A stretch of 64,000 bases of DNA from positions 23,722 through 87,721 of the forward strand of contig JAGVGJ010000032.1 in NCBI GenBank assembly GCA_020057115.1, given 5' to 3'. A program made the position numbers and the translations under genes. The notes under the pieces were generated by a model, which searched no databases, had not been told where the DNA came from, and saw only the letters and a program-made list of their open reading frames with translations. Source of the DNA: Candidatus Omnitrophota bacterium. GTDB taxonomy: Bacteria; Omnitrophota; Gorgyraeia; 2-01-FULL-45-10. Shown here one piece after another: positions 3,090-25,091 of this stretch (its first letter is position 1; each line of letters starts with the position of its first letter).

Positions 3090-3120
3090 TAATATATTCC
3101 TTAATTTATGTGGTTGTCGA

Positions 3121-4233: not shown

Positions 4234-4239
4234 AATATA

Positions 4240-4268
4240 ATTATACCATTTATAGGAAATAAATGCAA
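4240..4268 (-). promoter_or_regulatory. sigma70-like promoter for Fic paralog 1 (TTGCAT-17nt-TGGTATAAT), near-leaderless
   Basis: The minus-strand sequence reads TTGCATttatttcctataaatggTATAATtatattATG. It has an extended -10 TG and a 17-nt spacer. Confidence 0.4.
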
Positions 4269-4380
4269 CATCAATGATAATTTTATATAAAAAGTATCTT
4301 ATTATTTCCGATAAATTTCCTATTGTATCATACGATACTATCATCCTATTATATTTAGAATCCCAGAAGAATTTCTTAGA

Positions 4381-4477: not shown

Positions 4478-4569
4478 TGGCGGAGAGATAGGGATTCGAA
4501 CCCTAGGACAGCCTTTCAGCCGTCGCACGCTCTCCAAGCGTGTGCCTTAAACCACTCAGCCATCTCTCC
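4478..4569 (-). tRNA. tRNA-Ser (anticodon GGA), with CCA encoded
   Basis: Reverse complement GGAGAGATGGCTGAGTGGTTTAAGGCACACGCTTGGAGAGCGTG...GGGTTCGAATCCCTATCTCTCCGCCA. It has a long variable arm, a TTCGAAT T-loop and the anticodon loop TTGGAGA. Confidence 0.85.
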
Positions 4570-5866: not shown

Positions 5867-6538
5867 TTATTCGCCCTCGCCCGTCTTCTTCTCCAGCGCG
5901 GCCTTGAACATGGAATTCATCTCTTCGAGCTTCGCCGCCTTGGCCTCGAGCTCCTCGTTTATCTTTTTAAGCTCTTCCGTCTTGCTGGACAGGTCCTCAT
6001 TCTCTTTTCTCATCTCGCTGACCTCGTCGGCGACAAGCGAGTGCTGTTCTTTAAGCGCCTGGTCGACAATGGCCTTCGCCTTGGAGGTCCTATCCATATC
6101 TTCTTCGAGCTCCTTATTCCGCCTTCTTATCTCTTCCATCTCTGCGCGGAGGAGCGTATTATCTTTTTCCGTGCGGTCGAATTCGTCTTTTTTTACGCCA
6201 GAGCCCTTCTCTTTTCTCAAGGATTCCATCTCATCTTTAAGGGCCTGGTTTTCCTTTATCACTTCACCGACCTTGGTCTTGAGCTGATTGTTGTGGTCTT
6301 TTAACTGCGGGAGGTAGGATTCAAGGCCGCTATTTATCTCCTTTAGCATGACTATCTCTTTGCGGGGATCATATTTCACCTTCTCCGGCGCGCTCGTCTT
6401 GATAGGAGCGGCCGTAGTCACCGATTGTACGGGCTTATCTGTTTTTTTCTTCCAGAACTCCCACCCAGCGGCGGACGCGGATGTTGCGGCGAATATCAAT
6501 ATAAGGCCAGCGATAAAAATAGAGACTGTCTTTCTCAT
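5867..6538 (-). CDS. secreted coiled-coil protein (signal peptide followed by a Lys/Glu-rich heptad-like region)
   Basis: The N-terminus MRKTVSIFIAGLILIFAATSASAAG looks like a signal peptide. The remainder is EEL/KEL-rich, and no enzymatic motif is seen. It lies directly downstream of the giant gene. Confidence 0.6.
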   Translation of the reverse strand: MRKTVSIFIAGLILIFAATSASAAGWEFWKKKTDKPVQSVTTAAPIKTSAPEKVKYDPRKEIVMLKEINSGLESYLPQLKDHNNQLKTKVGEVIKENQALKDEMESLRKEKGSGVKKDEFDRTEKDNTLLRAEMEEIRRRNKELEEDMDRTSKAKAIVDQALKEQHSLVADEVSEMRKENEDLSSKTEELKKINEELEAKAAKLEEMNSMFKAALEKKTGEGE

Positions 6539-6646: not shown

Positions 6647-9600
6647 TTACAGGGACATCAATACGGCATCCTGGGCGCGCTTCCAGGCCTTGATATCATT
6701 GAAGTTTATCTTCCTTATCGGGAGGGTATAGCCCTTCTCGAATATCTTCTTCAATATATCCTTCGGATCCTCCTTGCCGCTTGCGACAAGCGCTATCATG
6801 TTGAGAAGGTCCTGGTGGTCCTGAGCGGCCCTCTCCTCCGCAGTGAGGCGGTCGTAATCGAGGAGTTTTATTCCGAATGCGAAGAATGTAGCTGTGTCCG
6901 GGAATTCTCCTGCGGTGTCTATCGACACGACTCTTACCCTGTCAAGTCCGGGGGTATTTTTTTCTGCAAGGTCTTTCATGACGAGAGAGAATGTCTTCTC
7001 GAGTTTCTTTGGCAGGAATACGATCGCTCTTGCGTCTTTCGGCGCCGCAGCAGCTTCCATGGCCTTGGCGGCTTTTGTTATTATATCGGCTATCTCGAAA
7101 TCGCTTGCGTCTTCCATGCCGATAATAGATTTGGCGCTAACATTAAAATCTTTCTCAATAACGCCGCCGGCCCTATTGCCTATATTGGTGCCCGGGGCTT
7201 TCAACCCTAAATCCGGCAGGAACTGGACTACTACGTTAAGTTTGTTTGGCCAGGCGCTCGAGAGGCTTTCAGCTATAACAACAAATCTCAAACTTGCTTC
7301 TATCATTTGTTTATTCTCAGCGGAGAGGGGCGATGAGTCTAAAGCTTCAAGGAGCTGTTTTATCACTTTGTCGGCAGTTAAGGCGCTATTCTTTGTGAGG
7401 CTTCCGAGCACATCTTTTGCGGCATTGTTCAGCGCGGCCTGGTCAAGCTTTGAGCCAGGTATAAGCTGTTCGGCAACAATACGGTCAAGGGCTTGCGAGT
7501 AAGGACTGGCCACAAGCGAAGTCGGCGATGGGACAACCGGACCTATAACGCCGCTCGTTGAGATAGACTGGCCGCTGGTATCAAGGACTTTCTTGGATTC
7601 ATCGATTGGGCCCAGCTCATCGTAACCGGCAACTTCGAGGGTCCCGACGCTTCCATCTGCATCCGGATAAAGCGTGGCATTCATTTTGTATTTGCCCGCG
7701 TCATAATCTTTTTCATATATAGTAAATAGGGCTTTTGCTTTCGCGCGCGACTCCGCCCTCAGTGCCGGATCAAGCTTCGACAAGAATTTCCTGAATGCCG
7801 TTTTGTCTTTGGCAGGCGCTTGCAGGAAATCTACGGCGAAATGTGCGATCGTAGCGGTAGGTATCCCTCCGAGCTTCGGGTCCATCTCGACCGCTTTATT
7901 AAGAGAGGATGCGGCAGCGGTGAAGTGCTCCTCTAAACCGGTGTCTCTAAGTCTCTTCAAGGCCTCTCCGGCCTCTAAGAGATATTGCGTGATCTTATCC
8001 TCCGGCGTTATCGCCGCTTTCTCGACCGCCGGCGTAACCACCATAGCTGTTGGCGCGGCAGGCACAACCGGCCTTCTGACGTCACTAAGCCTGTAGATGA
8101 GGAGGTTCGCATCGTCATGGACTATCGAGTCTACGGTCTTCACGGTGCCATCGGGCTGGATCACATCTTTTTTGACCATATTCTTAGCCATCGAATCTAT
8201 CGTGCTCTTGCCCGCGGCTATCTGAAGTGCCTCATGTGAGGCCTTCATGAGAAAATAATCATTGGCAGTCTTGTCGGTAAAAGGCGCGTAGCTTCCGACC
8301 TTGAAATCGGCGGGGTCGTATATATCATTCCTCTCGGCATCCATAGCTTCATTGAACCTGTCATTTGCGAAAACTATGGCCCGCACATTATCTTTAACGA
8401 TTATATTGGCTCTCGCATAAGCCGGCAGAAGTGTCTCCACTTGATTCGGATCAAGCATATCTATGTTCTTAAGCGGTTCGATGGCTTTCTCCCGGACGAA
8501 CCCTAGGGCCGTCGCCTTCTTCTTAGATGATTCGCTTGTGATATTATCGGCAATATATTTATCCACTGCCGCGCGCTTGTCGCTTTCATTGGTAAGCATA
8601 GCATCGGACATTATCTCTTTTATCTTGGCTGTCAGGTCCGTAGGAACATCTCTACTTATAACGGCTATCGGCATGCCGCCGGCATTATAGTCATAGGTAC
8701 GCTTAAGCCTATTATCTATCAAGACAGAATTATAAGTAATAAACATCCTGGTGCTCCCGAGTCCGACCTTCGCCAGTTCAAGCGACATGGCGGCCTGCAG
8801 ATAAGCTTGATATGCTGATAACACCTTCTTTGTCTGGCCTACTTGGTCGCCTTCGGGCATCGTCGATGCTATAGTCTCTATCGCCTCGATCGCTGTCATC
8901 ATCTTACCGTTCATCGGATAACGGAAATCCTTCGCTATCCTGTATAATATGCACCCGACTATGGCGCCCTGTATGCCATGGCCCGATACATCGCCCATCT
9001 CCATAAGAGCGAAGCGGCCGTCCTTGCTTTCAGCGAATGAATGCCAGTCCCCGCCTGCCGCATTTGCCGCGTCGAAAGGATTTTGTATCATCTGCTTCCT
9101 AAATATATCTACATTCTGCGTCTTAATGCCTTTATCAAGCTCGGTCTGTATCGCGTTAAACTCTTCAGAAGTGACGCCAAACATGCTGATGGCCCTCGCC
9201 ATGCTTTCAGCGTCATTGTGCTCTTCGAGCGTCTCCATTACATCCTTCGAGAGGAGCGTCTTATTATGCTTCACGATCTCCTTGTTAATAGCATTGTCGA
9301 TGACATCGGCGGCCTTGCTCAGCTCTAGAGCTTTCGTTATTGCAGCTGTGGCCATCTGAAGCTGGACTCTATCTAATATATTGATCTTCATCTGTCCTCT
9401 TAAAGCATCTACAGCCTCTTTCTGCACTATCCCAGCGGCATTTAGATTTACAAGCATGTCCAGTGCCACGTTAAGGTCTATCGCCTCTACGCCTTCGTTA
9501 GCCTTTAAGGCCTCTTGTCTTATATCTTCAATGCTCTTGTCTTCCGCCGCTCTCAACTCTTCAGCGTCTTTTAAAGCTGCAGTGGCGGCATTCAGCAATT

Positions 9601-12600
9601 TCTTGTCTCTTGCCTGAAGTATGCTGATAGCGATCTTTAGATCATTTATGTCATTCTGCATCGGCACTATATTAGCATTCAATTTCTCGACAACGCGCTT
9701 TACGCTGAACCGCGCCTTATCCAGCTCGGCCGTTTTTACAAAACTGACCGCATGACGAAGTTTAGCGTCACCGAGCACCTTCTTAGCTTCACCGGCAAGG
9801 CCTGATTTTGCCCCTTCAAACATAGAAACAGCGTTCTTAAGGTTTCCGACATCCTTCATGCTCGGGACCGGCTTATTCTTTCCAAGGAGGACGACAAGCT
9901 CTGCCTTATGGAGAATCGCATTATTGGTAGCTGTGGCCAGGGCAGCGTCAATGTCTGGGGTGGCCGGCGAGACCGTAAGGTTCATGAAATCTAGGACTTT
10001 AAGCGTTCCGTCTGACATCCTGCCGATATTGCCGAGAATATTGCTCTCGGTATCCACGGTAAAATAGAGGCCTCTGGCCCTTAGACTCTCCAAGAATGAT
10101 TTGGTTTCGGTTTTCAAAGTTTCTCTTGCATTGTCATCTTGAGCCTGTTCCATTTCGTCCAGAAGGGTATTGTTGGCGCGCACCTGGAGTATTATCTTCT
10201 CTCCATTCGTCGCTTCGATCATATCGAAAGCAGCTATCGCGTCACCGCCTGAATCCTTTATCTTCTTTATGGCCTCAGCAAAATCTTTAGCGCCCATCTC
10301 CCTGGTCAACGCGCTCTCCGGAGTCTCTTTACGGCCTGTCATAACGCTCTGGAATCTCTTAAGCTCCACGGGAACCTGTTCATCGCCAGGAGTCCTAAGC
10401 TCAAAGGCTAGCGTATGCCTGCCGACGCCGTCCAGTTCCGCGACCAGCCCGTCTGCTATATCTCCTTTATAGCCTCCCGCGCGGGACGCCATATCGGCTA
10501 CGGCCTTTTGCGGTATGAGCGCCGAGAACCCGACGGCCGAAGGATCACTAATGCTTATGGCTTTACCTTTAACATAATCGACCACCCCGGCAGTGTATTG
10601 TGCGTCGTTCAATTTATTAAGAGCGGCTGTAACGTCTTCTATACGGTAATGGCTCTGCCCGGCCAGGCGGTCTATCTCGGAATTAAGTTTTTTACTTCTA
10701 GCTTCGGGATTATTGGCAGTCCGTTCAAGCTCAGCGCGAAGGTCACGTCTAAGGCCTTTCAGTACATCATTCCGCTCTTTTATCTCGTGCATGAGCTTAG
10801 CTGTAAGCTCCTTCTCTTTACCTTTCTCCAGGAGGCTGCTATCAAGATATATCTGATTCCTGCCCAGGCTATAGTGCGCCTTCTGGCCCCTTATAAATAT
10901 CAATGTCGTATCTTTAAGCATGTCGGCTATACCGAGTGAGCCTATCACTTCTTTAAGAAAAGCCGCTTTTTCGGGCGAATCAAGTCCGTCTATTATATCG
11001 CCTGCCTGGTGTCCGGCATTTTCATCAAGGGTCCTATCAAGCGTTATCCCGGTCTTAACCGCATTGCCTGCGCTAATATTGTAGGCAAGGAACTGGCCTC
11101 GCCGTAATGCAACTTTTATAAGAGTTGTGTAGCTGTCATTGGGCAGATTGTCCGCGCCGCGCCCGCCTACGATCGCAACACCGGCTGCGGCTGCTACGTC
11201 TGTACCCATAAGCCCCGCCAGAGGTCTCCACACGGTTACGACATTGCCTGAGATGCCCATAGCTATATCATCTAGAGTATAGTTCTTCTGCTCTCCTCCT
11301 TTGGTCAGGTTCTCGCAAATAATGTCCTCGCCTCTAACCTCTTTGACCAGCCTTAATGTACCTGAAGCGCTGAGTATGATATCTCCTTTTTGGGGCTGAT
11401 CTATGTTTCCGAGGATATTCGGGGACCTGTTATAAAAATTTGCCAGAAAAATGGATAGCGCCGGGAGATATTGGTCCTCTTTCATGGAGCCGGTGGGCCG
11501 CCACGCGCTTGCCGCGCCTTGTGAAAGCCGTCTATTGATCTGGTCGAGCTTAACGATATCTTCCCTGCCTGTTGAAAGGTTCTCCATGACAACATCATTT
11601 CCATCTATGCTGGTTACGGCCCTCGATGTTCCAGAAGCGCTAAGCATGATATCCCCGGCCTGAAGCTGCGTCCTCCTGCCTAATACTAATGGACCAATAT
11701 TCGAGCATCCTGTAAGAAAAGTTGCCAAAGATGCAGGATAAGCGCCTAAAGCGGGAGCCATTTTCTTTACGGCAGGCCTTGCCGCGATAGCGGCAGCTGG
11801 ACGAGCTGCCGGAGCGGCCTTTGCAATAACCGTTCTGTTCATGAGGCCTTGCGCGCCTTCTTCGTATTTCGCCACATTGCCAAGCGGATCTACTTCCAGT
11901 ATTCCGCCTTTACTGCCACGCTGGCGATAATTGCCGGACATGCCGCCGTCTATACAATATACGTCGCTGTCAAGCCCTGTAAAGTTTTTGATCTCTCCTG
12001 AGCCGACAGCATGCCCTACTATCAATCGGAAATTGACATCCTTGCCAAGGCCCATCTGCTTGCGCATCGCTTCATAAAGTCTTTCTCTGTCACTGCGTTC
12101 TGCTCCTTCGCTGGCCCATTCCTTTGCATATGGCCATATATCCATACCCCTTTCGGCGTCAAAAAACATCCCTATAGCTTCGTCAAGCCCTGCCATAAGA
12201 CCGCCTTTTGTCCCATCGACTTTAGCGGCATTGGCCGGATCATAAACATAATTAAATACTGCCGCGGGGATGCTGGCATGCGCGATTATATTACCGTCAA
12301 CAGCCGCTACGCGTTTGAGATTGAGGAAGAAATCTACAACACCGTCCTTCTTCATGTTCTGGAACGCGGCTCCGAATTCACCATACTTGTCTACTTCGGC
12401 AGAGCTGCCTTTATAATTTTCGTAAAACTCTTGCACTGTATTCATAACATCCATAACCGCTCTGGGGTTGAATCCCAGCTTAAAGGCTATATCCCCGGCC
12501 CTCTCCTGCGCCGTCTTGAGGTCGACCTTCCCCATCGTCCCCATATCTTCAAAAAGTTTTCGCATTACATAATCATGGTTGCCTTCTATGGTGATGACCA

Positions 12601-15600
12601 TGGCCCCTGCGGCTTGGGCCTCCTTTATCATCTTCATGATGAACTTTACAACCGCGACATTCTGTTTACCTCTATCTATATAATCACCTGCGAATGAAAC
12701 GACCTCTCCTTTTTTAAATGTAAATTTTACATTGCCCTGCTTGTCCACGGCTACAATGCCCGCGGCTGCCAGATGTTTTATAAGTTCGTTATAATCGGCA
12801 TACACATCCGGCACCGCCACCAGCCTCGTGGCTCCTATAAAGGCCACAAAGTTCCTATTGGTTTGCGGTGATATCTGTCTTAGCTGTTTAGTAGGCGCGG
12901 CGACGGCAAGGCCTTTCTGCGCGATAGCCTGCCTCATCTGAGGAGAGATCTTTGCGAGCTTTTCAGAGACAACCGCATTATACTTTTCAACAGCCAGCCT
13001 GATATTCTCCTGCGCTTGAGGAGAGAGATAATCGACACCGATGCTTCGCGATAAGATGATCTTGCTCGTCATGACTTCGATACTGAAAGCGATATTTTTA
13101 TACTTAGAATTATCGCGATATTTGTCGTCCAGGTTCTGTATATTACCGATCCCTTTTTCTTCTATCCTGCCATCGGCCGTCACCATGACATTTACTCCGG
13201 CATATCCCTGGCCAGCATTACCGCCCACGGATTCACCTGCAAGGACTTTGTCAAAAGCATTGGACTGCATCATAGCGACATTGTGATCCACTATAACGGC
13301 ACTACCGGCAATAGCGGCCTGCCGGACACCGCGCCCTGCGGCCTGCGCGAGCTCTTCGCTTACCATCCTGTTATGGGCCGCATATGCAAGATTATTGATC
13401 TTCTTGACCGGCTGCGGAGAGCGGCGCGCTAGCGGCGTACTCTGCTCCTGAGCATTTAGCCCATTGACAACTGCCGCGCGCTCCTGTATCTCATGGCGCA
13501 GTTGCTTTGCAAGTTCAGCCGGATCGGCAATATGTTTGGTATCTATGTAATACTGGTTTCTCTGAATACCGTAATGAGTTCCGTAGCATGCCTCGCCTAC
13601 TTGCGTAGAGACGGCATCATCAAGCCCGCCTATGAATAATATCGTCGCATCTTCCCCTAGAAGCGCCCTGTCTTCCTCACTTAAAGCACTCAGGGTGGCA
13701 TTAAGGTTCTTGACTTGCTGCTGGTTAAGGGCCAGCCGGCCGGCCAATGCATTACCGTTGTCAAGATTTAGCTTAGTCCCGGTGAACCTGCCGTCCGCGG
13801 AAGGTTGGATCGCCGTAAAAGATCCCTTCCATATTGCATTCTTTATCGGGTCTGCGTAAAAATCATTATTCATACCCGCGAAACCGCGGGACGGCTCTAC
13901 AGTCGTGCCGGCAACACCGGTAAGGATCGTCATGGTATCAAGTTTTGGCTGAGCAGCGGTCATATCCATAAAACGCGAGACTATGGTCGCCGCGCGAGCT
14001 TTTATTTCTTCGTTGAAATAACTCGGGGCGACAGACCACCTGTCCGGGTGTTTTTTAGAATCGACGGAAACTTCGTAGAAGTCGGCGTCGAAACCTACAA
14101 CGCTGTCCGGATCATAACTCCTGGTATTATTGTCATATCCCATGAAACCGTAATTGTTCTTCGCATTCTGAGTGTCTCTGTCGAAAACGCCGCGGTCCTT
14201 CATCTTATTGAATAGGTTGTTGATGGCCGTCCATATCTTATCCGTCTGGGCCTTCAGATCTTTTTTGCTCCTGTCGGCATCCGCCGTGATCTTTGTGAGC
14301 TTATCGTCGTATTCTTTGCGTTTTACAGGGCTCAATAGCCCCGGCCTTGCTCCGAGAGCGGCGACAGCCCTCTGCATGTCGCTGTCGACTTTTTGCTCTG
14401 CCTGTCTTATGCTTGTCAGCGCTTCATCTACCACCATGACCTTTGTCTGGACTATGGCAAATGGCACGTCTACGACCTGCTCCTGCCCATTTTCATCCAT
14501 TACCGTGAATCGAAGGTTCTCTATGACCTGCGGAACGAATATACTCCCGAGTTTTGCTTTGGCGCCTGCATACTTGCCGGATATGTCCTTCTGCATCTTA
14601 TCGACATCCTCAGGCCTTATCTTGGTCCCGTCCCTCTTTTTGTCCGTCCTGGGAAATTTAACGATTATGGTGCCGTACGTGGGGTCGACCATCTCATAGA
14701 CCAGCATCGAATTCCCCCTCAAGCTGACTATGTCGCCTTTGGCATCTCTCATCACATTGCCGGCCGGGTCTGTCAAATACCTGAGCGGTTTCTGTTGGAG
14801 GTTGCTCTTCACGATATTATTGGTCAGCATGCCAAGCGCATCCACAAGCGCCTTCACATTATCGATGCCATTCACGTCCACCCCGGCCTCTGAAAATGCC
14901 TGGATCATCTGTTTCAGCTGCTCTTCCTTGGTCTCCGGCTCGGACAATATGTCTCTTACTCTCTGCACGTCAAGATCGCTAAGCTTCAGCCGCTGTAATT
15001 CCGCAAATACGTTTATGGAAGTCCCGGGTTTACGCAATAGCGCCATCAGGTCATTCACCGCAAGCCGGTTCAAACCAGCCGCATCTCTCAAAAATGTCTC
15101 AAGCCTTGCGAGCTTCTGATCGCGGGTCATCTCCGGAGTAACAAATACCGAGGCCACCCATTTCGACAATGCGGCCTTTTTCATGGTCTGTTCATAAAGG
15201 ACGGCGTCCGGCATATTGAATCTTGCGCCCTCCCCTTGGGCCCTCTCTAAAACGCTCCTCTGGTATTCTCTTGTTTCGCGGACAAGGTCCCTCAGCTCAT
15301 CCGAAGCCATGCGGTTCAATTCCGCGGCGTGATATCCGGTGAGGCCGTCGACCATGCCGTTGGTGATAGTGGCCGTGCCGGTCTTTGATATCTTTTGGGC
15401 GAATGCCGCCGCCTGCTCGGCGCTAGCAACTATATGGGCATCGCGCATGGTATAACCGCGGTCCCTCCAGTATGCCTCTCGCGCTTCGTGGAAAAGGGAT
15501 TCTTGTTCAAATTTCAGGTTGCCTTTTGCATCAACAAAAGCCGGGCTTGAATTCAGGACTATCACTCTCGTGCCGTCGGAGCTTACAAAATTGAACGCCG

Positions 15601-17668
15601 GGCCCATATCGCTCCCGAGGTCGCTGGTTATCACTTTGGCATCTACGCCGTATGGCTTTGTCGCTACCGCGGCTATAGCGAGCTTTTCGAGCTCCGCCCT
15701 CTTCCTCGCATTAGCATCCAGGGTAGTGACAATCTTAGCGGTAGCCGCAGCAGCGCCGACTCTCTTTAAAGCGGACCCCGCGGTGATATCTTTTTGAAGC
15801 TCTGCCAGCGTTATCTCTGTCCCGTCTTCGCCGTCACCGAAATTCATCTTTTTGCCGTCCGGCAAAAGCAGCTGGACCGCGCCGTCTTCCTCGATCATCG
15901 CCTGTATCCTGACTGCAGCCCTGAAGGCATTGACATTATCCTTGCCCCATACGGCTTCGCCGAGAGATGAGAGCATGGTCGCTATCTGCATAGATGATGC
16001 TGAAGCCATTACAGGCGCCAGTTTATCGACCATTCCCGGCTCCTTGCCTGCGAGCAGGTTAAAATACGGGGATTGGTAACCTTCGTCATTCCTGAAGGTA
16101 GGTATGATAGATACGTAGGAGATATTGTTCTTCTTGAAGAGGTCGCAGAGGTTCTCGGTGTGGAATCCTCCGGAGACTATTACCGCATATTTCTTAGACG
16201 ACGGCGGGGCGCGCTCTCCAGGGAGGCCCATCTTCATATTCTTCAAGAATGCATCATCCCTCTTGAATGAATAGGCGTAAAATTCGGATATCTCATTCCT
16301 GTAGGCGTCGAGCTCATCGATACCGTCCGAAAGCTTTGCCTGTATCTTCCACTTCGGCGCTTGGTTTTCAATAAAGGATTTGAAGTTCTTTACGGCAAAT
16401 GAGCCTTCATTTGCGAGATAATATTTATAGTCATCTCTTGTTATCGCGATATTGAATATGTTCTTCGTGAGGGTGAGGTTCTTTGAGAGTTCATCCAGCT
16501 TCCTCTGGTCATCGTTCTGGTAGAGGCCTTCCTTTATCTTGGATTCGAGGGCCGCCATCTCTTCGAGTATCTTCGCCTTGTCGATGGCCTGGTACAGGGA
16601 TATATATACTATATATTTCTGGAGTTCCGGCATATCCTTGATCTCTATATTCGCGATCTTCGCCTTTTTTAATAGATATGTGTAAAAGTCGCCTTGCGCT
16701 ATTTTTTCTGCCTGGAATTCCACCGTCATAACCACCAATTCTTCGAGCTGCTTCTTGGGAAGGGATTTCTGAAGCAGATCGACAAGTTTCGACTTCTCAG
16801 TATCTGCCTTCTTGAAATCTATCCCGCCTTCCTGTTCGAGCGACTGCTGCAACAGATACAGGTTCGTATAGCTCTTTATGTTGATTGCCTGGCGATTGCC
16901 GTATTTCACGAGACAGAGGACATAGTCCTTGAAATCGAGCTTATTCTCTTTATATTCGGTGAACTTCTTGTCCAGATCGAGGAGCTCCGGTGGATAGAGT
17001 TTATTCTTTATGTTACCTAATATATAGCTGATCTCATTCAAGTACTTATCGACCTTATCCTTATATTTAAGGGAGTTTTTATAGACTTTGAGGTTATCGA
17101 CATAGAGCTTCGTGTCTTCAACGCCCCACAGAGCCGCCTTGTTCGGATTATTTATCGCAAAATACTCGGCGCCGTTCACGAGCCCGTCCTTTACGAAGTA
17201 GTCGCTCACGCGTTCCCTGGTATCGGGATCATTTATGGAGTCGAATATTGCAAGATCATAATCTCCGACACCACCTTCAAGATTTACAGAACGGATGCCA
17301 TATTCCTTATTAAAGTAATCGATCAGTTCGGATAGCTTGCGCTGGCAGGCGTAGTTGCAATGGGCATCCTGTATATGTATGACGGTCGTTGAAGACCCCG
17401 CATCATAACTATCTCTTATATGCCCCAGATTCTGAGGCAGGCTGAATGTCTTTACATTAAGCTCTTTGGTAGAGCTTGGGCTGCCCGGTTCCTCTGAGCC
17501 GACGCTCGTAAGCTCTGGAGTTGCCCTGGCAGCCCACGCTCTTTCTACAAGGGTATCGACCCCCCCTGTAGTAAACAAAAAGGACCACAAAGTGATGATC
17601 GAGATCACCTTTAATGGCCCTTTCCTGCTTATATGATTACTGCGGCTATCAGCCCGAGCGTCTTTCAT
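6647..17668 (-). CDS. giant secreted/anchored multidomain protein (3,673 aa): possible TIKI/ChaN-like region, PPP-type metallophosphatase domain, PP2C/SpoIIE-type phosphatase domain, tandem SH3-like modules, paired HEIxER modules
   Basis: A single uninterrupted ORF with an ATG start at 17666-17668 and a GAAGGGG RBS. The N-terminus has a TM/signal segment VISIITLWSFLFTTGGV. GxxH-like motifs HIQDAH (aa ~97) and SGGFH (aa ~499) suggest a TIKI/ChaN-like fold. GDYIDRG (aa 1661) and GNHD (aa 1696) mark the PPP domain. GGDWHSF (aa 2871), GDVSGHG (aa 2892) and NAGGMP (aa 2995) mark the PP2C domain. Confidence 0.85.
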   Translation of the reverse strand: MKDARADSRSNHISRKGPLKVISIITLWSFLFTTGGVDTLVERAWAARATPELTSVGSEEPGSPSSTKELNVKTFSLPQNLGHIRDSYDAGSSTTVIHIQDAHCNYACQRKLSELIDYFNKEYGIRSVNLEGGVGDYDLAIFDSINDPDTRERVSDYFVKDGLVNGAEYFAINNPNKAALWGVEDTKLYVDNLKVYKNSLKYKDKVDKYLNEISYILGNIKNKLYPPELLDLDKKFTEYKENKLDFKDYVLCLVKYGNRQAINIKSYTNLYLLQQSLEQEGGIDFKKADTEKSKLVDLLQKSLPKKQLEELVVMTVEFQAEKIAQGDFYTYLLKKAKIANIEIKDMPELQKYIVYISLYQAIDKAKILEEMAALESKIKEGLYQNDDQRKLDELSKNLTLTKNIFNIAITRDDYKYYLANEGSFAVKNFKSFIENQAPKWKIQAKLSDGIDELDAYRNEISEFYAYSFKRDDAFLKNMKMGLPGERAPPSSKKYAVIVSGGFHTENLCDLFKKNNISYVSIIPTFRNDEGYQSPYFNLLAGKEPGMVDKLAPVMASASSMQIATMLSSLGEAVWGKDNVNAFRAAVRIQAMIEEDGAVQLLLPDGKKMNFGDGEDGTEITLAELQKDITAGSALKRVGAAAATAKIVTTLDANARKRAELEKLAIAAVATKPYGVDAKVITSDLGSDMGPAFNFVSSDGTRVIVLNSSPAFVDAKGNLKFEQESLFHEAREAYWRDRGYTMRDAHIVASAEQAAAFAQKISKTGTATITNGMVDGLTGYHAAELNRMASDELRDLVRETREYQRSVLERAQGEGARFNMPDAVLYEQTMKKAALSKWVASVFVTPEMTRDQKLARLETFLRDAAGLNRLAVNDLMALLRKPGTSINVFAELQRLKLSDLDVQRVRDILSEPETKEEQLKQMIQAFSEAGVDVNGIDNVKALVDALGMLTNNIVKSNLQQKPLRYLTDPAGNVMRDAKGDIVSLRGNSMLVYEMVDPTYGTIIVKFPRTDKKRDGTKIRPEDVDKMQKDISGKYAGAKAKLGSIFVPQVIENLRFTVMDENGQEQVVDVPFAIVQTKVMVVDEALTSIRQAEQKVDSDMQRAVAALGARPGLLSPVKRKEYDDKLTKITADADRSKKDLKAQTDKIWTAINNLFNKMKDRGVFDRDTQNAKNNYGFMGYDNNTRSYDPDSVVGFDADFYEVSVDSKKHPDRWSVAPSYFNEEIKARAATIVSRFMDMTAAQPKLDTMTILTGVAGTTVEPSRGFAGMNNDFYADPIKNAIWKGSFTAIQPSADGRFTGTKLNLDNGNALAGRLALNQQQVKNLNATLSALSEEDRALLGEDATILFIGGLDDAVSTQVGEACYGTHYGIQRNQYYIDTKHIADPAELAKQLRHEIQERAAVVNGLNAQEQSTPLARRSPQPVKKINNLAYAAHNRMVSEELAQAAGRGVRQAAIAGSAVIVDHNVAMMQSNAFDKVLAGESVGGNAGQGYAGVNVMVTADGRIEEKGIGNIQNLDDKYRDNSKYKNIAFSIEVMTSKIILSRSIGVDYLSPQAQENIRLAVEKYNAVVSEKLAKISPQMRQAIAQKGLAVAAPTKQLRQISPQTNRNFVAFIGATRLVAVPDVYADYNELIKHLAAAGIVAVDKQGNVKFTFKKGEVVSFAGDYIDRGKQNVAVVKFIMKMIKEAQAAGAMVITIEGNHDYVMRKLFEDMGTMGKVDLKTAQERAGDIAFKLGFNPRAVMDVMNTVQEFYENYKGSSAEVDKYGEFGAAFQNMKKDGVVDFFLNLKRVAAVDGNIIAHASIPAAVFNYVYDPANAAKVDGTKGGLMAGLDEAIGMFFDAERGMDIWPYAKEWASEGAERSDRERLYEAMRKQMGLGKDVNFRLIVGHAVGSGEIKNFTGLDSDVYCIDGGMSGNYRQRGSKGGILEVDPLGNVAKYEEGAQGLMNRTVIAKAAPAARPAAAIAARPAVKKMAPALGAYPASLATFLTGCSNIGPLVLGRRTQLQAGDIMLSASGTSRAVTSIDGNDVVMENLSTGREDIVKLDQINRRLSQGAASAWRPTGSMKEDQYLPALSIFLANFYNRSPNILGNIDQPQKGDIILSASGTLRLVKEVRGEDIICENLTKGGEQKNYTLDDIAMGISGNVVTVWRPLAGLMGTDVAAAAGVAIVGGRGADNLPNDSYTTLIKVALRRGQFLAYNISAGNAVKTGITLDRTLDENAGHQAGDIIDGLDSPEKAAFLKEVIGSLGIADMLKDTTLIFIRGQKAHYSLGRNQIYLDSSLLEKGKEKELTAKLMHEIKERNDVLKGLRRDLRAELERTANNPEARSKKLNSEIDRLAGQSHYRIEDVTAALNKLNDAQYTAGVVDYVKGKAISISDPSAVGFSALIPQKAVADMASRAGGYKGDIADGLVAELDGVGRHTLAFELRTPGDEQVPVELKRFQSVMTGRKETPESALTREMGAKDFAEAIKKIKDSGGDAIAAFDMIEATNGEKIILQVRANNTLLDEMEQAQDDNARETLKTETKSFLESLRARGLYFTVDTESNILGNIGRMSDGTLKVLDFMNLTVSPATPDIDAALATATNNAILHKAELVVLLGKNKPVPSMKDVGNLKNAVSMFEGAKSGLAGEAKKVLGDAKLRHAVSFVKTAELDKARFSVKRVVEKLNANIVPMQNDINDLKIAISILQARDKKLLNAATAALKDAEELRAAEDKSIEDIRQEALKANEGVEAIDLNVALDMLVNLNAAGIVQKEAVDALRGQMKINILDRVQLQMATAAITKALELSKAADVIDNAINKEIVKHNKTLLSKDVMETLEEHNDAESMARAISMFGVTSEEFNAIQTELDKGIKTQNVDIFRKQMIQNPFDAANAAGGDWHSFAESKDGRFALMEMGDVSGHGIQGAIVGCILYRIAKDFRYPMNGKMMTAIEAIETIASTMPEGDQVGQTKKVLSAYQAYLQAAMSLELAKVGLGSTRMFITYNSVLIDNRLKRTYDYNAGGMPIAVISRDVPTDLTAKIKEIMSDAMLTNESDKRAAVDKYIADNITSESSKKKATALGFVREKAIEPLKNIDMLDPNQVETLLPAYARANIIVKDNVRAIVFANDRFNEAMDAERNDIYDPADFKVGSYAPFTDKTANDYFLMKASHEALQIAAGKSTIDSMAKNMVKKDVIQPDGTVKTVDSIVHDDANLLIYRLSDVRRPVVPAAPTAMVVTPAVEKAAITPEDKITQYLLEAGEALKRLRDTGLEEHFTAAASSLNKAVEMDPKLGGIPTATIAHFAVDFLQAPAKDKTAFRKFLSKLDPALRAESRAKAKALFTIYEKDYDAGKYKMNATLYPDADGSVGTLEVAGYDELGPIDESKKVLDTSGQSISTSGVIGPVVPSPTSLVASPYSQALDRIVAEQLIPGSKLDQAALNNAAKDVLGSLTKNSALTADKVIKQLLEALDSSPLSAENKQMIEASLRFVVIAESLSSAWPNKLNVVVQFLPDLGLKAPGTNIGNRAGGVIEKDFNVSAKSIIGMEDASDFEIADIITKAAKAMEAAAAPKDARAIVFLPKKLEKTFSLVMKDLAEKNTPGLDRVRVVSIDTAGEFPDTATFFAFGIKLLDYDRLTAEERAAQDHQDLLNMIALVASGKEDPKDILKKIFEKGYTLPIRKINFNDIKAWKRAQDAVLMSL

Positions 17669-17915
17669 GGTGGCTTAGCCCCTTCTTTCATTTTATAAAT
17701 ACTTTTTAAATCTTTAAATTATCTCCTCTAAAAAAATGCCTTTCCGAGCGTCGCTTCGGTCCAGCTTACTTCGAGCGTCCTTCAATTATAAGTTTACCTG
17801 ATGGATATGAAAATACAAGGAAACTTAGCTAGCTTTTTTCAATACTAACATTTGCTAGTTTTTCGGATAGAATTGGAGGCATGTGAGGCGGCGTCGGTAT
17901 CAGAGATACCGACAT

Positions 17916-17947
17916 CCGCCATATTTTTCAGAAGAAAAATATGGCGG
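17916..17947. repeat. 14-bp perfect inverted repeat CCGCCATATTTTTC-agaa-GAAAAATATGGCGG overlapping the 3' end of tRNA-Ser(CGA)
   Basis: The sequence is read directly. The right arm is the tRNA acceptor 3' strand plus CCA. A second hairpin (GGCGGCGTCGGTATC-agag-ATACCGAC..) follows at ~17885-17915. Confidence 0.5.
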
Positions 17948-18031
17948 AGAGGGAGAGATTTGAACTCTCGTACCCCGTTAGGGGTAACACGCTTTCGAGG
18001 CGTGCGCGATCAACCGCTCTGCCACCTCTCC
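17942..18031 (-). tRNA. tRNA-Ser (anticodon CGA), with CCA encoded
   Basis: Reverse complement GGAGAGGTGGCAGAGCGGTTGATCGCGCACGCCTCGAAAGCGTG-long arm-GAGAGTTCAAATCTCTCCCTCTCCGCCA. Confidence 0.85.
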
Positions 18032-18262
18032 GGTCATTACTGATAATCTATTCTAATCTGTCTAAATTTTTTCGCGCTTGCGCAAAATTTGGATCCCGCT
18101 TGAGAGTCTTACAAAGTTCTCTGGCCTTAACTATATCACCGGCATCGCGATACTGCGCGGCAAGACTATTATATAACAGATACTATACCACAACGGATAA
18201 CAGAAGCACAAACAGGATAGAAAAAATATGCCTCCTGGAATATGGATCTTGAAAGCAATGTG

Positions 18263-18667
18263 CTACAATTCCTGCCTGGCCCATATGTAGAACCTCTCGG
18301 CCTGTTTTAAGATCTCGAGAGCATCGTGTTGTGAAAAAACCGCATTGTCATATTCTATCAAAGACTTCTTCGCCAGAATACGGCGAAATGCGCTTAACTT
18401 ATCACCGACTCCATCGATCTTAAGATTCTGCTTCATAAGGTCCAGCGCAACCATATGGTCTCTGTCTATCGACCTCCTCCCGCCATATCTGACAAGAAGC
18501 GCATCGGCTATCGAAATAGCGCAATGTACCGCATTCAATCCAACCGCACTCCAGTAACCTTCTTTCTCAGCGTGAAGCATGGACTTATAGAATTCCTCTG
18601 CCTTCTTCTTATAATTCAAGTATTGAGACCTGTCGACTTCCGCTGTTTTAACCTTCTTCGATGTCAT
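18263..18667 (-). CDS. HEPN-domain protein (putative toxin of HEPN/MNT pair)
   Basis: It is a small 134-aa protein with an Rx4-6H-like motif (RRSIDRDH). It overlaps the upstream MNT gene by 4 nt (ATGA). Confidence 0.6.
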   Translation of the reverse strand: MTSKKVKTAEVDRSQYLNYKKKAEEFYKSMLHAEKEGYWSAVGLNAVHCAISIADALLVRYGGRRSIDRDHMVALDLMKQNLKIDGVGDKLSAFRRILAKKSLIEYDNAVFSQHDALEILKQAERFYIWARQEL

Positions 18668-19317
18668 ATTACCAACCTTTCAAGAGGCCTCCCCTGGACC
18701 AGTATATAAGCGCTCAGGATCTCTTTTACTATCGGCTCATTATCTTTATGCCTTCTCTTAAATTGATCTATCGATAATACATATGGCACGATCGCGGTCT
18801 GAAAATCACGAGCTACTGCATCTGCTATCAGGTCGAGGCTCTCCTCAACTTTCTCTTTGTCCCTAACGCTGCCGAGGACTACGATCAAGTCTATGTCGCT
18901 CTTTGGCCCCTCTCTTCTCCTGGCTACGCTTCCGAAAATAGCCACTGTCTCGACAGTCGCTTTCGGACGCGATACCGCTTTTTTTATAAGGGCCGTAACG
19001 GCAGGTAATATACTTTTCTCCTTTTCAAAGAAAGGCTTTACAAGGACCTTTACAATGTAGCTATCCGTATTAAGCGAGTAAAGATAGGCCTTACCTGCGG
19101 ACGAGGCTTTCACAACCCCGTCTTCTTTCAGGCTATTGAGGAATTTATTTATGGTAGTCGGGCTCGCGGTGAGAAGCCTTGCAAGCTGCCGCCCTGTCAA
19201 TCCGGCGCTTTCCTTGCACAGTATGCGTAATATGCCGGTCTTCAGCTTGTGATCGAACACCCTGTCGAGCGCATTATATATAAGCATGGGGTTTTCCTTG
19301 TCCATTAAATTGGACAT
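18664..19317 (-). CDS. nucleotidyltransferase (MNT/pol-beta superfamily) with N-terminal winged-helix domain (putative antitoxin)
   Basis: It has the GS-x(n)-DxD nucleotidyltransferase motif GSVARRREGPKSDIDLIVV. The N-terminal HTH-like region is TGRQLARLLTASPTTINKFLNSL. Confidence 0.65.
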   Translation of the reverse strand: MSNLMDKENPMLIYNALDRVFDHKLKTGILRILCKESAGLTGRQLARLLTASPTTINKFLNSLKEDGVVKASSAGKAYLYSLNTDSYIVKVLVKPFFEKEKSILPAVTALIKKAVSRPKATVETVAIFGSVARRREGPKSDIDLIVVLGSVRDKEKVEESLDLIADAVARDFQTAIVPYVLSIDQFKRRHKDNEPIVKEILSAYILVQGRPLERLVI

Positions 19318-19349
19318 ATGTCCACTATTATGGATATAGGATACCTTAT

Positions 19350-19375
19350 TTAACGGCCCTTGTCAAGGGGCGGGC
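19350..19375 (-). promoter_or_regulatory. putative promoter/operator of MNT-HEPN operon: -35 TTGACA embedded in palindrome CCCTTGACAAGGG
   Basis: It lies about 45 nt upstream of the MNT start codon. The sequence was read on the minus strand. Confidence 0.35.
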
Positions 19376-19431
19376 TCACTATTTCTGCTATCTTTTCTTC
19401 GCCTCTGCTGCCATCCTGGCTACTAATGCAA

Positions 19432-19481
19432 ACGTCCTGTTTAGGTACATCCTACTCGCAGGATGTACCTAAACAGGACGT
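19432..19481. repeat. 22-bp perfect inverted repeat with 6-nt loop (ACGTCCTGTTTAGGTACATCCT-actcgc-AGGATGTACCTAAACAGGACGT)
   Basis: The sequence is read directly. It is the strongest hairpin in the window and lies between the Fic2 cassette and the MNT/HEPN operon. Confidence 0.8.
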
Positions 19482-19495
19482 CCGATCATTTTACT

Positions 19496-19553
19496 TTACC
19501 CGTCGCCCCGTGTCTTAACTGGCGGTGTGTTCTCGAGTTTGTTCGAACTCACT
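19496..19553 (-). repeat. orphan copy of the tRNA-Ser trailer element (first ~27 nt) fused to a degenerate tRNA 3'-end remnant (GAGTTCGAACAAACTC...ACCGCCA)
   Basis: TTACCCGTCGCCCCGTGTCTTAACTGG matches 21303-21329 at 25 of 27 positions. The adjoining sequence retains a T-arm-like hairpin and ...CCGCCA. Confidence 0.55.
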
Positions 19554-19566
19554 TTATGAAAGAAAG

Positions 19567-19605
19567 TGTCATTGCGAGCCCCGCCGCAGGCGAGGCAAAG
19601 CAATC
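19567..19605 (-). repeat. REP-like element copy (GATTGCTTTG-hairpin-CTCGCAATGACA family), reverse orientation
   Basis: The motif matches the copies at 22266, 23595 and 25092. Confidence 0.6.
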
Positions 19606-19850
19606 TATCAAAGAAAAAAGTCTTTAACGCTTGGCTCGGCCCGGCCACAGGCCGGGCGCGTCCTCGCCACACACTCTGAAGCGTAATAATGTATGCATAA
19701 CGGCTAAAGGCTCATCCGCCCCACCTCAGCCTACAACTTGCCAACTACATGGGGCTTCGGTGGTTGCCGAGCCCCTCACCCCAAAAGATCTTGAGGCAAA
19801 AAGAACAAAAATGCCTCAATGGGCAGAATTTGGTTAAAAAGACCTTTCTT

Positions 19851-21011
19851 TTACTTCTCTCCTAATAAATCTAGCAATTCTTTGGCGCAAAAAACTTTCC
19901 CCCACCTCTTATTACTAGCTCCAGAAAGTATTTTCATCTCTTGCAGCTTCTTAACCGCGGCTTTGGCAGTGGGATAGCTAGTTTCTAATTTTTTAGCTGC
20001 ATAGGGAATCGTAACAAATGGATTCAAGAAAACTTGATCCAACAGTTTTAATGCATATGTTGATCCTCTATCTTTTTGAATAAGCTTACGATATTTATCT
20101 AATAGTTTAAGTATCGATTTAGAATTTTCTATGGCGTCCTTCGATTGGACTGCCACTGCCCGCAAGAAAAACTTAGCCCATTCTTCCCATTCGCCATTCT
20201 CGCTTACAGCTAATAGTCTTTCATAGTATTCGCTGCGATATTTCTCAAAAAAAGCACTGAGATAAAGCATGGGATATACCAAATATTCTCTTTCGCCTAA
20301 GAATAGAGTGGTAAGTAGCCTGCCCATCCTTCCGTTACCATCTAAAAATGGATGGATCGCTTCAAATTGATAATGGATCAAAGCGCATTGTATAAGACCG
20401 GGGAAATTATTTCTATCGTGCAAGAACTTTTCAAAATGCCCTAACGCATCGTTCATTTCACGTACAGGCGGTGGTACAAATTTTGCATTGTTTAGAGTGC
20501 ATCCCGCGGGACCTATCCAATTTTGGCTGCGCCTAAATTCGCCGAGAGTCAGATGCTCTCCTCTTACCCCCCTCATTAACTCTCTGTGGATCTCTCTAAT
20601 AAGACGAAGAGAAAGAGGAAGTTCTTTTAATCTTTGAATTCCATAGTTTATCGCTTTTACATAATTAACTACTTCGAGGACATCTGTTTTTTTAACCTCT
20701 TTTTGTTTTTCTTCCTTATTCGCTGCTTCAAAATAAAAAAGATCCGATAGGGATGCTTGAGTGCCCTCAATTTTCGAACTGAGAACAGCTTCTCTTTTAA
20801 TATAGGGCGTTATAAGGAGGTTGGGGTTAGGTAGTAACGCGCCAACACCTGAGAGATTGCCTAATTGACGATCGGCCTCAGAAAGCAAATTAACCATTTC
20901 TTTGCCGTAGACAATAGCTGGCGGAAGTGGGTTAGGCACAAAAGCCCAATAATCTCTTTCTGTTTTTATTATTTTTCCGGCTTTGCTATTTTTAAACCTG
21001 GCTATATCCAT
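19851..21011 (-). CDS. Fic/DOC family protein (class II), paralog 2
   Basis: It has the canonical HPFLDGNGRMGRL motif and the inhibitory SSKIEGT motif. The start is an ATG. Confidence 0.85.
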   Translation of the reverse strand: MDIARFKNSKAGKIIKTERDYWAFVPNPLPPAIVYGKEMVNLLSEADRQLGNLSGVGALLPNPNLLITPYIKREAVLSSKIEGTQASLSDLFYFEAANKEEKQKEVKKTDVLEVVNYVKAINYGIQRLKELPLSLRLIREIHRELMRGVRGEHLTLGEFRRSQNWIGPAGCTLNNAKFVPPPVREMNDALGHFEKFLHDRNNFPGLIQCALIHYQFEAIHPFLDGNGRMGRLLTTLFLGEREYLVYPMLYLSAFFEKYRSEYYERLLAVSENGEWEEWAKFFLRAVAVQSKDAIENSKSILKLLDKYRKLIQKDRGSTYALKLLDQVFLNPFVTIPYAAKKLETSYPTAKAAVKKLQEMKILSGASNKRWGKVFCAKELLDLLGEK

Positions 21012-21064
21012 AATTTCCTAATATTTTGCGCCTCACCGATAATAGGTAGTTAGCCCCAGCTTTA

Positions 21065-21125
21065 AGTATACTTTAGACTTTTAAAGAAATCAAGCTTTTT
21101 CTTTAATTGCTATTTTAGCAATTAA
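21065..21125 (-). promoter_or_regulatory. Fic2 promoter (TTGATT-17nt-TATACT) with upstream 23-nt palindrome TTAATTGCTA-ttt-TAGCAATTAA (candidate operator)
   Basis: The -10 is at 21065-21070, the -35 at 21088-21093 and the palindrome at 21103-21125 on the minus strand. Confidence 0.45.
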
Positions 21126-21200
21126 AGTACCTTATAATTCTATTTCAACCTCTTTCTCAAGTTTTTAGGGACATGCCATTTTACGCCCCCTATTGCCCCG

Positions 21201-21329
21201 AAAAAGATCGGTTCGAACTTTATTTTATCCCTCGCATTCGCTCGGGACGCTTCGCAGAAAGAGCGCCGGATAAATTTTTCGTCGGAAGGTACCTTCCGAT
21301 TCTTCTTACCCGACGCCCCGTGTCTTAAC
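21201..21329 (-). repeat. conserved tRNA-Ser trailer element, copy B (palindrome TCGGAAGGTACCTTCCGA at 21282-21299; carries 33-nt insertion relative to copy A)
   Basis: The alignment to 4381-4477 was done by eye. Confidence 0.7.
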
Positions 21330-21419
21330 TGGCGGAGGAGGTAGGATTCGAACCCACGGAGGCATTGCTGCCTCAACAGTTTTCAAGACTGCCGCGATCA
21401 ACCGCTCTGCCACTCCTCC
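21330..21419 (-). tRNA. tRNA-Ser (anticodon UGA), with CCA encoded
   Basis: Reverse complement GGAGGAGTGGCAGAGCGGTTGATCGCGGCAGTCTTGAAAACTGTTGAGGCAGCAATGCCTCCGTGGGTTCGAATCCTACCTCCTCCGCCA. Confidence 0.85.
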
Positions 21420-21524
21420 ACCCTAAAACGCCTAAAGAACAATTTTTCCCGCCAAACAACTTTATTGTAAAACTATGCGTCTTTAAAGAGGAGTTTGTCG
21501 GGACTCCCTCGCTTCGCTCGGTCG

Positions 21525-21560: not shown

Positions 21561-21592
21561 GCACAAAATATCTAAAGAACAGTTTTCCCGTT

Positions 21593-25069: not shown

Positions 25070-25091
25070 CCGCTCTATTCCTTCATTGATA

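Follow-up and report, generated by a model that had tools for sequence, protein, structure and literature searches.

Members of the phylum Omnitrophota encode long secreted or membrane-bound polypeptides that string together many unrelated enzyme domains, Ser/Thr phosphatases included. Most of these proteins have a signal peptide or transmembrane (TM) helices, and glycoside hydrolase (GH) genes often lie next to theirs (10.1101/2023.11.21.568195; 10.64898/2026.06.07.730766). It has been suggested that they act on the surfaces of prey or hosts, in a phylum that is possibly predatory or epibiotic (10.1101/2023.11.21.568195; 10.64898/2026.06.07.730766). 'Serine/threonine phosphatases' are listed among the domain types of the giant proteins, and how giant genes originate and take up new domains was explicitly left open by West-Roberts et al. 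2023 (10.1101/2023.11.21.568195). Here we describe a gene at positions 6647..17668 of a 64,000-nucleotide window from Candidatus Omnitrophota contig JAGVGJ010000032.1, which encodes a protein of 3,673 amino acids (aa), called the giant below. We found that the giant is an ordinary ~900-1,000-aa exported protein of an Omnitrophota-restricted family, with ~2,750 additional residues inside the disordered linker between its two domains. The gene and all its parts lie on the minus strand.

The giant resembles the Omnitrophota giants ('Archaeovorins' and related proteins) in its phylum, its series of unrelated and divergent enzyme domains, its N-terminal signal peptide, its Pfam-free N-terminal region, the GH gene nearby and the presence of Ser/Thr phosphatases among the domain types. 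It differs from them in size, 3.7 kaa against at least 10-30 kaa, which places it below the 10-kaa catalogue threshold. Unlike them it also lacks internal TM helices and any glycosyltransferase, SecA-like, C39/S8 or dockerin content; its gene has neither an upstream locus of the type II secretion system (T2SS)-like kind nor a downstream PilZ gene; and its scaffold is recognisable as that of a normal ~900-aa family plus an insertion. Archaeovorins are defined by at least 30,000 aa, many TM helices, glycosyltransferase, methyltransferase, NUDIX and SecA-like content and an upstream T2SS-like locus. In the giant we found 3,673 aa, one N-terminal hydrophobic segment and Metallophos as the only Pfam domain above its cut-off, and the neighbours are tRNA-Ser, HEPN/nucleotidyltransferase (NTase) genes, Fic, a coiled-coil protein and GH5. 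The terms ChaN, TraB, erythromycin esterase, zincin and Metallophos are unmentioned in the text of either study (10.1101/2023.11.21.568195; 10.64898/2026.06.07.730766), and SpoIIE, PP2C, PF07228 and PF00149 are also unmentioned in that of the second (10.64898/2026.06.07.730766).

A family scaffold with an insertion in its linker

Using aa 1-620 of the giant as query, we found 117 homologous proteins, with E values down to 4e-201. Those with names are almost all from Omnitrophota, with one from Auribacterota, and none has a Pfam annotation over this region. The giant is not a de novo protein. Complete members of the family have only ~890-1,080 aa. The N-terminal homology stops at about aa 590-690 of the giant, and at the opposite end aa 3391-3673 (6650..7498) match the C-terminal domain (C-domain) of the family in local blastp, with E=6e-27 to aa 636-902 of the member P0041 and E=8e-15 to P0007. 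Identity to P0041 is 48% over the aligned part of the N-terminal domain (N-domain) and 32% in the C-domain. Comparison of the extreme C-terminal tails, each running up to the stop codon, gave the same pattern in the family (...IF.G..L.IRPIDW..ID.WK.AQ..L.S[VL]) and in the giant (IRKINFNDIKAWKRAQDAVLMSL). A search with aa 2700-3673 had returned no match; its word filter misses relatives of ~30% identity, and those of the C-domain were later found by blastp.

The position of the extra residues was examined on an AlphaFold2 model of P0041, a 902-aa member, built from an alignment of 50 sequences. In this model the N-domain has a predicted local distance difference test score (pLDDT) above 90 for aa ~50-480, aa 583-647 form a disordered linker, and an alpha/beta C-domain follows with pLDDT of ~70-80. 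The giant is homologous to the family at its N- and C-terminal ends and the disordered linker lies exactly between the two domains, showing that the giant is a normal protein with a linker insert. From the blastp boundaries and the linker of the model, the insert covers aa ~630-3390 (7499..15781), ~2,750 aa beyond normal-length members. Within it, a first copy of a recurring module, which we call module X, is followed by a lambda/Shelph-type PPP phosphatase domain, two small tandem repeats and a second module X. These are followed by an orphan stretch, then by a helical part that contains short internal repeats, and then by a PP2C-like domain of the SpoIIE type, which is divergent.

The N-domain (aa 48-~600; 15869..17527) comprises ~550 residues. 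Invariant in the family alignment are H, D, H, C, N and Q of HIQDAHCN...Q, E and G of EGG, and T-G-G-F-H (SGGFH in the giant, TGGFH in the family consensus). Its fold neighbours are 2rad and 2qgm (EreA-like 'succinoglycan biosynthesis'), 8bqs_DQ (TraB family), 5t09 (HopBA1), 5w6l (MARTX effector RRSP) and 6xcq (erythromycin esterase EreC), all of which we take to belong to the EreA/ChaN/TraB/TIKI superfamily. At the level of the predicted fold, the N-domain is therefore assigned to the ChaN/EreA/TraB/TIKI group. The initial annotation had compared this region with TIKI, TraB and ChaN enzymes on account of two GxxH-like motifs. The fold neighbours and the invariant His and Glu agree with that comparison, as do the invariant GGFH, a GxxH-type motif, and the E of EGG; the first motif, (T)VIH-IQDAH, has no clean GxxH, and aa 1-620 gave no match to Pfam (including PF01963, PF04187 and PF05139) or NCBIfam even at E<=10. 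A Foldseek search of the scaffold model against the PDB returned no significant match. Compared with the EreA/ChaN/TraB-PrgY-GumN/TIKI superfamily, the family has in addition a ~290-residue all-helical insertion and an extra invariant Cys and Asn (DAHCN). The invariant residues would fit a metal-dependent or His/Glu hydrolase site. The C-domain, ~270-280 aa, resembles generic three-layer alpha/beta (Rossmann-like) folds in the model, with no specific assignment.

Relatives of the giant carry other content behind the N-domain. The only relative from a metagenome scan, L081 (contig Ga0268280_1000188, locus 9989-21695), has more than 3,900 aa and runs off the fetched locus. It starts with the N-domain, the only part that it shares with the giant (51% identity), and continues with more than 3,300 unrelated residues, which contain several TM segments, a region resembling S-adenosylmethionine (SAM) methyltransferases and HExxH motifs. 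In seven further proteins (P0122, P0123, P0125-P0127, P0130 and P0137) the N-domain occurs together with module X and additional content, and some of them end in family-type C-terminal tails. P0137 contains a metallo-beta-lactamase (MBL)-fold domain and P0095 an acetyltransferase domain (PF00583). Since family members carry such varied payloads, the inter-domain region is a recurrent site of domain accretion. Two adjacent partial calls in one Omnitrophota metagenome-assembled genome (MAG), P0106 and P0125 (ACFL5Y_01240 and ACFL5Y_01245), give the impression of a single expanded family member whose gene call was split: one is a fragment of the N-domain, and the other, with 1,849 aa, has most of the N-domain again together with module X. 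Another partial match, P0084, breaks off in sequence that by eye resembles the start of a protein kinase.

Phosphatase-type domains and module X

The PPP-family domain (lambda/Shelph/Pnkp-like) lies at aa 1596-1940 (11849..12883) and is marked by DVY, GDYIDRG, GNHD, IAHAS and VGHAV. We found that Pfam PF00149 (Metallophos) matches it with 26.7-30.6 bits against a cut-off of 21.5, and PHROG 246 (NinI-like Ser/Thr phosphatase) with E=4.9e-11 over aa 1613-1803. Among PDB entries it matches 1v73, a cold-active phosphatase of Shewanella (E=5e-7), 4j6o, the phosphatase domain of Pnkp (E=7e-5), and RLPH2. Motif II, GDYIDRG, is at 1661-1667 and motif III, GNHD, at 1696-1699. IAHAS at 1795 falls within the PHROG 246 alignment, and VGHAV at 1884 pairs with YGHTP of 4j6o solely in a weak second fragment. 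The alignments to 1v73 (DVHG) and 4j6o (DIHG) also showed directly that motif I reads PDVYA for GDxHG: the Asp is kept, the His that binds metal 1 is Tyr1623, and the Gly is Ala. The metallophosphatase domain and its degenerate first metal motif had both been proposed in the initial annotation, and both hold. As judged from its sequence, assignment of the domain to the PPP-type phosphatases is solid and statistically supported. Like the bacterial-type enzymes (lambda PPase/NinI, Shelph 1v73, Pnkp 4j6o, RLPH2) it has GDxxDRG and GNHD, with candidate downstream His motifs, and unlike them it has PDVYA as motif I and is embedded in a 3.7-kaa chain. The candidate ligands D1621, D1662, N1697/H1698, H1797 and H1886 are kept; because the motif I His ligand is Tyr, catalytic activity is uncertain.

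The second phosphatase-type domain, at aa 2864-3198 (8075..9079), is a divergent PP2C-like domain of the SpoIIE/RsbU type with long insertions, in which GGDWHSF, GDVSGHG, NAGGMP and HDDANLL can be read. The top match among 177,635 PDB sequences was the PP2C domain of Rv1364c (3ke6; E=0.073). A tblastn search of 7.3 Gb of plasmids gave 22 weak matches, of which the best has E=0.02 and spans 137 residues; a gene is annotated at 12 of them, and in 11 cases it is a 'SpoIIE family protein phosphatase', and two other tiles of the giant, run as controls in the same search, gave three unrelated matches each. A profile built from seven of the plasmid phosphatases, which is biased to the first two motifs, placed its second-best site in the giant at the terminal DD motif, colinear with them. 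When a position-specific scoring matrix was scanned along the whole giant, HDDANLLIYRL scored best (23.6 against 14.1 for the next site), again colinear with the N-terminal motifs, and NAGGMP ranked 3rd to 5th in the motif scan. Alignment by hhalign of the C-terminal half, from which the first two motifs had been removed, gave P=0.055; none of 20 shuffles and nine control tiles did as well. Metal ligands D2874, D2893 and D3185/3186 are kept. We consider aa 2864-3198 very probably homologous to the SpoIIE/PP2C phosphatases. The domain resembles SpoIIE/RsbU/SiaA-type PP2C phosphatases (PF07228; Rv1364c 3ke6) in having GGDW..., GDVSGHG and a terminal hDD-x-x-LL in the right order, and its best Pfam, PDB and plasmid matches all belong to the SpoIIE family; it is unlike them in length, ~335 aa against ~200, with large insertions that make it ~130 residues longer.

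Module X occurs twice in the giant, at aa 1258-1441 (13346..13897; motif RHEIQER) and at aa 2168-2348 (10625..11167; MHEIKER), and scores 150.5 and 193 bits, respectively, with its own hidden Markov model (HMM). The two copies, of ~180 aa, form an internal repeat with 31% identity (E=8e-8). A HMMER scan of 1.84 billion sequence representatives found module X, and next to nothing besides, in 22 other long proteins of 1.2-4.3 kaa, some of which have two or three copies. The carriers with names are from Omnitrophota. An AlphaFold2 model from 20 copies reached a pLDDT of 85.7 and a predicted template-modelling score (pTM) of 0.82. It predicts HExxER on a long helix after the sheet, where zincins have HExxH, so that the module may be called zincin-like; the zinc motif HExxH itself was not found. 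H130, E131, E134 and R135 are each kept in 90% or more of the 20 copies, and some copies in other proteins have no HE at all. In other Omnitrophota long proteins, module X directly precedes PGM/PMM domains and shares the chain with PGI and transaldolase domains. We also observed a second Omnitrophota family of carriers (P0118-P0121, P0124, P0132 and P0138) with its own conserved N-terminal domain (signal peptide …LLFQQTGFAQ…), its own conserved C-terminal tail (…ET..ELKAFL…) and module X beside PGM/PMM, PGI and transaldolase. A candidate third copy in the giant near aa 700-750 (LFHEAREA) was rejected, as the HMM finds two only.

Between the PPP domain and the second module X lie two tandem repeats of ~90 aa with the pattern GDI[M/I]LSASGT...VWRP (aa 1981-2149; 11222..11728; internal repeat E=5e-15). 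They show only a weak YajC/SH3-like resemblance (TIGR00739 YajC, E=0.0038, below the cut-off). Two regions that had looked protein-kinase-like by eye, aa ~960-1260 and ~2400-2640, gave nothing relevant in Pfam tiles, NCBIfam, PDB phmmer or plasmid tblastn and were discarded.

Proposed export and activity, and competing explanations

We favour, with a probability of roughly 60%, the reading in which the giant is an expanded Omnitrophota family protein exported by Sec, with its phosphatases outside the cytoplasm and its cassettes accreted in the linker. The N-terminal segment, aa 1-47 (17528..17668), had been noted in the initial annotation as a TM or signal segment, and we could confirm it: six K/R in the first 20 residues form a basic n-region, a 15-residue hydrophobic h-region follows at aa 20-34, and AWA|A is found at aa 44-47, of which WAA is conserved in the family consensus. 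Its features suggest a Sec signal peptide or an N-in signal anchor. Hydropathy analysis found no other strongly hydrophobic segment in the giant; the Ala/Gly-rich aa 2150-2168 slightly exceed the cut-off and are probably not membrane-spanning. The protein has nine Cys in 3,673 aa (0.2%). From the n-region, the h-region, the conserved AxA, the lack of further hydrophobic segments and the low Cys content we infer export of the whole chain by Sec, after which it would act in the cell envelope or outside the cell. The literature on Omnitrophota long proteins, which are multi-enzyme, mostly bear a signal peptide or TM helices and have GH genes nearby, points in the same direction (10.1101/2023.11.21.568195; 10.64898/2026.06.07.730766). 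Outside the cytoplasm, the phosphatase domains would strip phosphate from extracytoplasmic substrates, either surface molecules of prey or host or organic phosphate. For module X there are two possible roles, either as a peptidase that processes its own chain and so releases the cassettes, or as a structural connector that moves along with them. The nearest solved relative of the PPP domain, the Shewanella phosphatase, is itself exported.

Several findings weigh against this reading. The best Pfam match of the PP2C-like domain, the PF07228 (SpoIIE) profile, stays below its cut-off of 25 bits with 13.7 (E=0.061), and the match extends only over positions 2-90 of the 192 in the profile. No TDG motif can be recognised in this domain, where the candidate FANDRFNE ranks 111th, and NAGG in place of NAGH is an active-site deviation, as is Tyr for His in motif I of the PPP domain; either domain may be inactive. 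No relative of the PP2C-like domain was found at E<=1e-3 in the HMMER scan of representatives, nor even at E<=10 in a word-indexed search with the corresponding tile, and NCBIfam gave no match for it. The SpoIIE/PP2C domain of the initial annotation is thus supported in its position and its motifs, whereas its profile match is sub-threshold and one motif is not recognisable; an HMM match is there, without amounting to a clean pass. SpoIIE-type phosphatases are normally cytoplasmic. About 1,500 insert residues (aa 630-1257, 1442-1595, 2349-2863 and 3199-3390) have no detectable relatives in Pfam, NCBIfam or the representative scan. More than half of the protein had earlier been called unplaceable; both module X copies, the tandem repeat and the family C-domain (aa 3391-3673) are now placed, and these ~1,500 residues are still orphan. 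In the neighbourhood, the GH5 protein has no obvious signal peptide, and no T2SS-like secretion system or PilZ genes surround the giant, unlike true Omnitrophota giants (10.1101/2023.11.21.568195).

The deviations at the active sites would also fit a pseudo-enzyme scaffold, in which dead phosphatase-like and zincin-like domains serve as binding or structural modules and the N-domain alone is catalytic, if anything is. Besides the Tyr in PPP motif I and the PP2C-like domain with NAGG for NAGH and no recognisable TDG, this explanation would account for HExxE in module X, the copies elsewhere from which HE is missing, and the fact that both phosphatase domains are extremely divergent orphans. However, most metal ligands are kept in the PPP and PP2C-like domains, and in module X the H, E, E and R are each kept in 90% or more of 20 copies. 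We consider this explanation unlikely, although it survives best among the alternatives.

The location of SpoIIE-family phosphatases raises a different possibility, a regulator that faces the cytoplasm, with an uncleaved N-terminal anchor and a cytoplasmic bulk, whose PP2C and PPP domains dephosphorylate the cell's own signalling proteins in partner-switching or Ser/Thr signalling. Such phosphatases are classically cytoplasmic regulators, and the plasmid matches include a SiaA-type SpoIIE gene beside SiaB and SiaC genes. Of the catalogued Omnitrophota long proteins, 46% have a predicted membrane anchor and the bulk of the chain in the cytoplasm, and a Pfam module labelled 'signal-transduction' is frequent (10.64898/2026.06.07.730766). 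In the giant, however, the six K/R precede the h-region, for which the positive-inside rule predicts N-in, C-out, and the AxA site is conserved after the h-region. The very low Cys content and the lack of partner-switching genes (STAS, anti-sigma) near the giant also argue against a cytoplasmic location. ChaN, TraB and TIKI relatives act outside the cytoplasm. Taken together, we regard such a regulator as improbable, and place it behind a pseudo-enzyme scaffold.

In a variant of the extracytoplasmic reading, the ~900-aa ChaN/TIKI-fold family would be the seed scaffold of some of the Omnitrophota long proteins, with enzyme cassettes entering its linker along with a mobile module X; module X would cut the exported chain, making the giant in effect a secreted polyprotein that sets free separate enzymes, in this case two different phosphatases, at the cell surface or in prey. 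We rate this polyprotein as doubtful, and lower than either of the two preceding explanations. The giant can also be compared with MARTX and polymorphic toxins, in which effectors are arrayed behind a conserved delivery head and freed by a peptidase. These resemble the giant and its relatives L081 and P0137 in combining a conserved N-terminal module with variable enzymatic payload and in a recurring protease-like module between cassettes; a MARTX effector, RRSP, is also among the fold neighbours of the N-domain. The toxins differ from the giant, which lacks repeat-containing translocation regions as well as CPD, Rhs/YD and an immunity gene, and whose payload is internal and bracketed by the conserved C-domain, not C-terminal; processing of the giant is purely hypothetical.

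The last alternative concerns the integrity of the open reading frame (ORF). A single 11-kb ORF of 3,673 aa plus stop had been called in the initial annotation, and it is complete at 6647..17668. It starts with ATG, has a GAAGGGG ribosome-binding site ~12 nt upstream and contains no internal stop over 11 kb, and all motifs quoted earlier are at their residues (HIQDAH 98, SGGFH 499, PDVYAD 1620, GDYIDRG 1661, GNHD 1696, GGDWHSF 2872, GDVSGHG 2892, NAGGMP 2995). Across eleven sub-segments, GC is 0.47-0.54 and GC at third codon positions (GC3) 0.49-0.62; every segment falls within the range of the other genes of the window (24 genes; GC 0.481 +/- 0.038, GC3 0.565 +/- 0.090). The ORF is real and has no compositional seam, and a chance origin of 11 kb in DNA of 48% GC is excluded. 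The sole internal DNA repeat is 30 nt at 73% match. A scan of genome contigs with the giant protein gave no match. An assembly chimera or an accidental fusion of adjacent genes, in whose favour one may cite that neither the giant nor the neighbouring seryl-tRNA synthetase (SerRS) was in public collections by exact-sequence look-up and that no full-length homologue exists, is very improbable, since the giant begins and ends with the N- and C-domains that belong together in one family, in the right order and in frame, composition does not vary along the ORF and is that of the window, no long repeats offer a seed for misassembly, the frame is open over 11 kb, and inserts with module X are also found in other family members.

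Gene neighbourhood and meaning for Omnitrophota

The SerRS of the window (22307-23581, minus) has its best relatives in Candidatus Omnitrophota MAGs, at 67-77% identity, which is why we assign the window to Omnitrophota. None of 80 SerRS-adjacent loci that we examined encodes a relative of the giant. A greedy caller gave ~55 ORFs of at least 70 aa in the window; bar a few short and probably spurious ones, every one lies on the minus strand, and the cumulative GC skew declines monotonically over 1-64000. Three tRNA-Ser genes on the minus strand (anticodons GGA, CGA and UGA; 4478-4569, 17942-18031 and 21330-21419) and the SerRS gene are packed within 20 kb. The tRNA-Ser(CGA) at 17942-18031 is the immediate upstream neighbour of the giant gene; a listed ORF at 17941-18252 (+) overlaps it and is spurious. 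The giant gene, the coiled-coil ORF and GH5 lie exactly between two tRNA-Ser genes, and a HEPN/NTase pair and a Fic gene between the next two. The intervals between the tRNA-Ser genes may be slots for island-like insertions. At 23636-25626, genes for RtcB RNA ligase and archease stand side by side next to the SerRS/tRNA-Ser cluster, with which they make up a neighbourhood for tRNA repair and tRNA charging.

The next gene downstream of the giant (5867-6538), with its own GGAGG ribosome-binding site, encodes a 223-aa protein that has a clear signal peptide (…ATSASA|AG) and then a long coiled coil; it could be an exported partner of the giant. The downstream order continues with the GH5 cellulase, the second gene from the giant, then a Fic gene, a radical-SAM/SPASM protein and an ammonium transporter. 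Upstream, HEPN (134 aa) and winged helix-turn-helix NTase (217 aa) genes at 18263-19317, with overlapping stop and start codons, are a typical HEPN/MNT toxin-antitoxin module. Two Fic/DOC-domain genes, one of them with a Fic_N domain, flank the region, downstream of the giant at 3121-4344 and upstream at 19851-21011. The upstream one has a GC of 0.39 and GC3 of 0.34, markedly below its neighbours, and this low GC suggests recent acquisition. A complete pst-type phosphate uptake set (a PstS-like binding protein, two permeases, two ATPases and PhoU, with a PAS/HAMP histidine kinase; 28205-35580) begins ~10 kb upstream of the giant gene with its phosphatase domains; they are neighbours only, not members of one operon. 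PADLOC defence models gave no match. No conserved operon partner was found: the contexts of the relatives P0035, P0065 and P0013 differ from each other and from the window.

The initial annotation had not recognised two unrelated phosphatase folds on one exported giant as a described architecture. This framing overlooks that the phylum is known for multi-enzyme long proteins and that the giant is an expanded member of a ~900-aa family. The pairing of PPP and PP2C-like domains on one exported chain is unusual; in Omnitrophota it is an expected outcome of cassette accretion and no new principle. What is new here is the ~900-aa scaffold family, the insertion in its linker, the recurrent HExxER module and the payload of PPP and PP2C-like domains. 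Insertion of cassettes into a permissive linker would be a small-scale version of the way in which the giant genes of the phylum grow. The ancestral state (the ~900-aa family), the insertion site (the disordered linker) and the recurrent connector module can all be named in one small gene, which makes it a tractable model for domain accretion by giant genes. Two Omnitrophota domain families that had not been described, one being the ChaN/TIKI-fold head and the other the HExxER zincin-like module, are defined by this work as well, and could serve as HMM markers for the Pfam-dark parts of much larger proteins.

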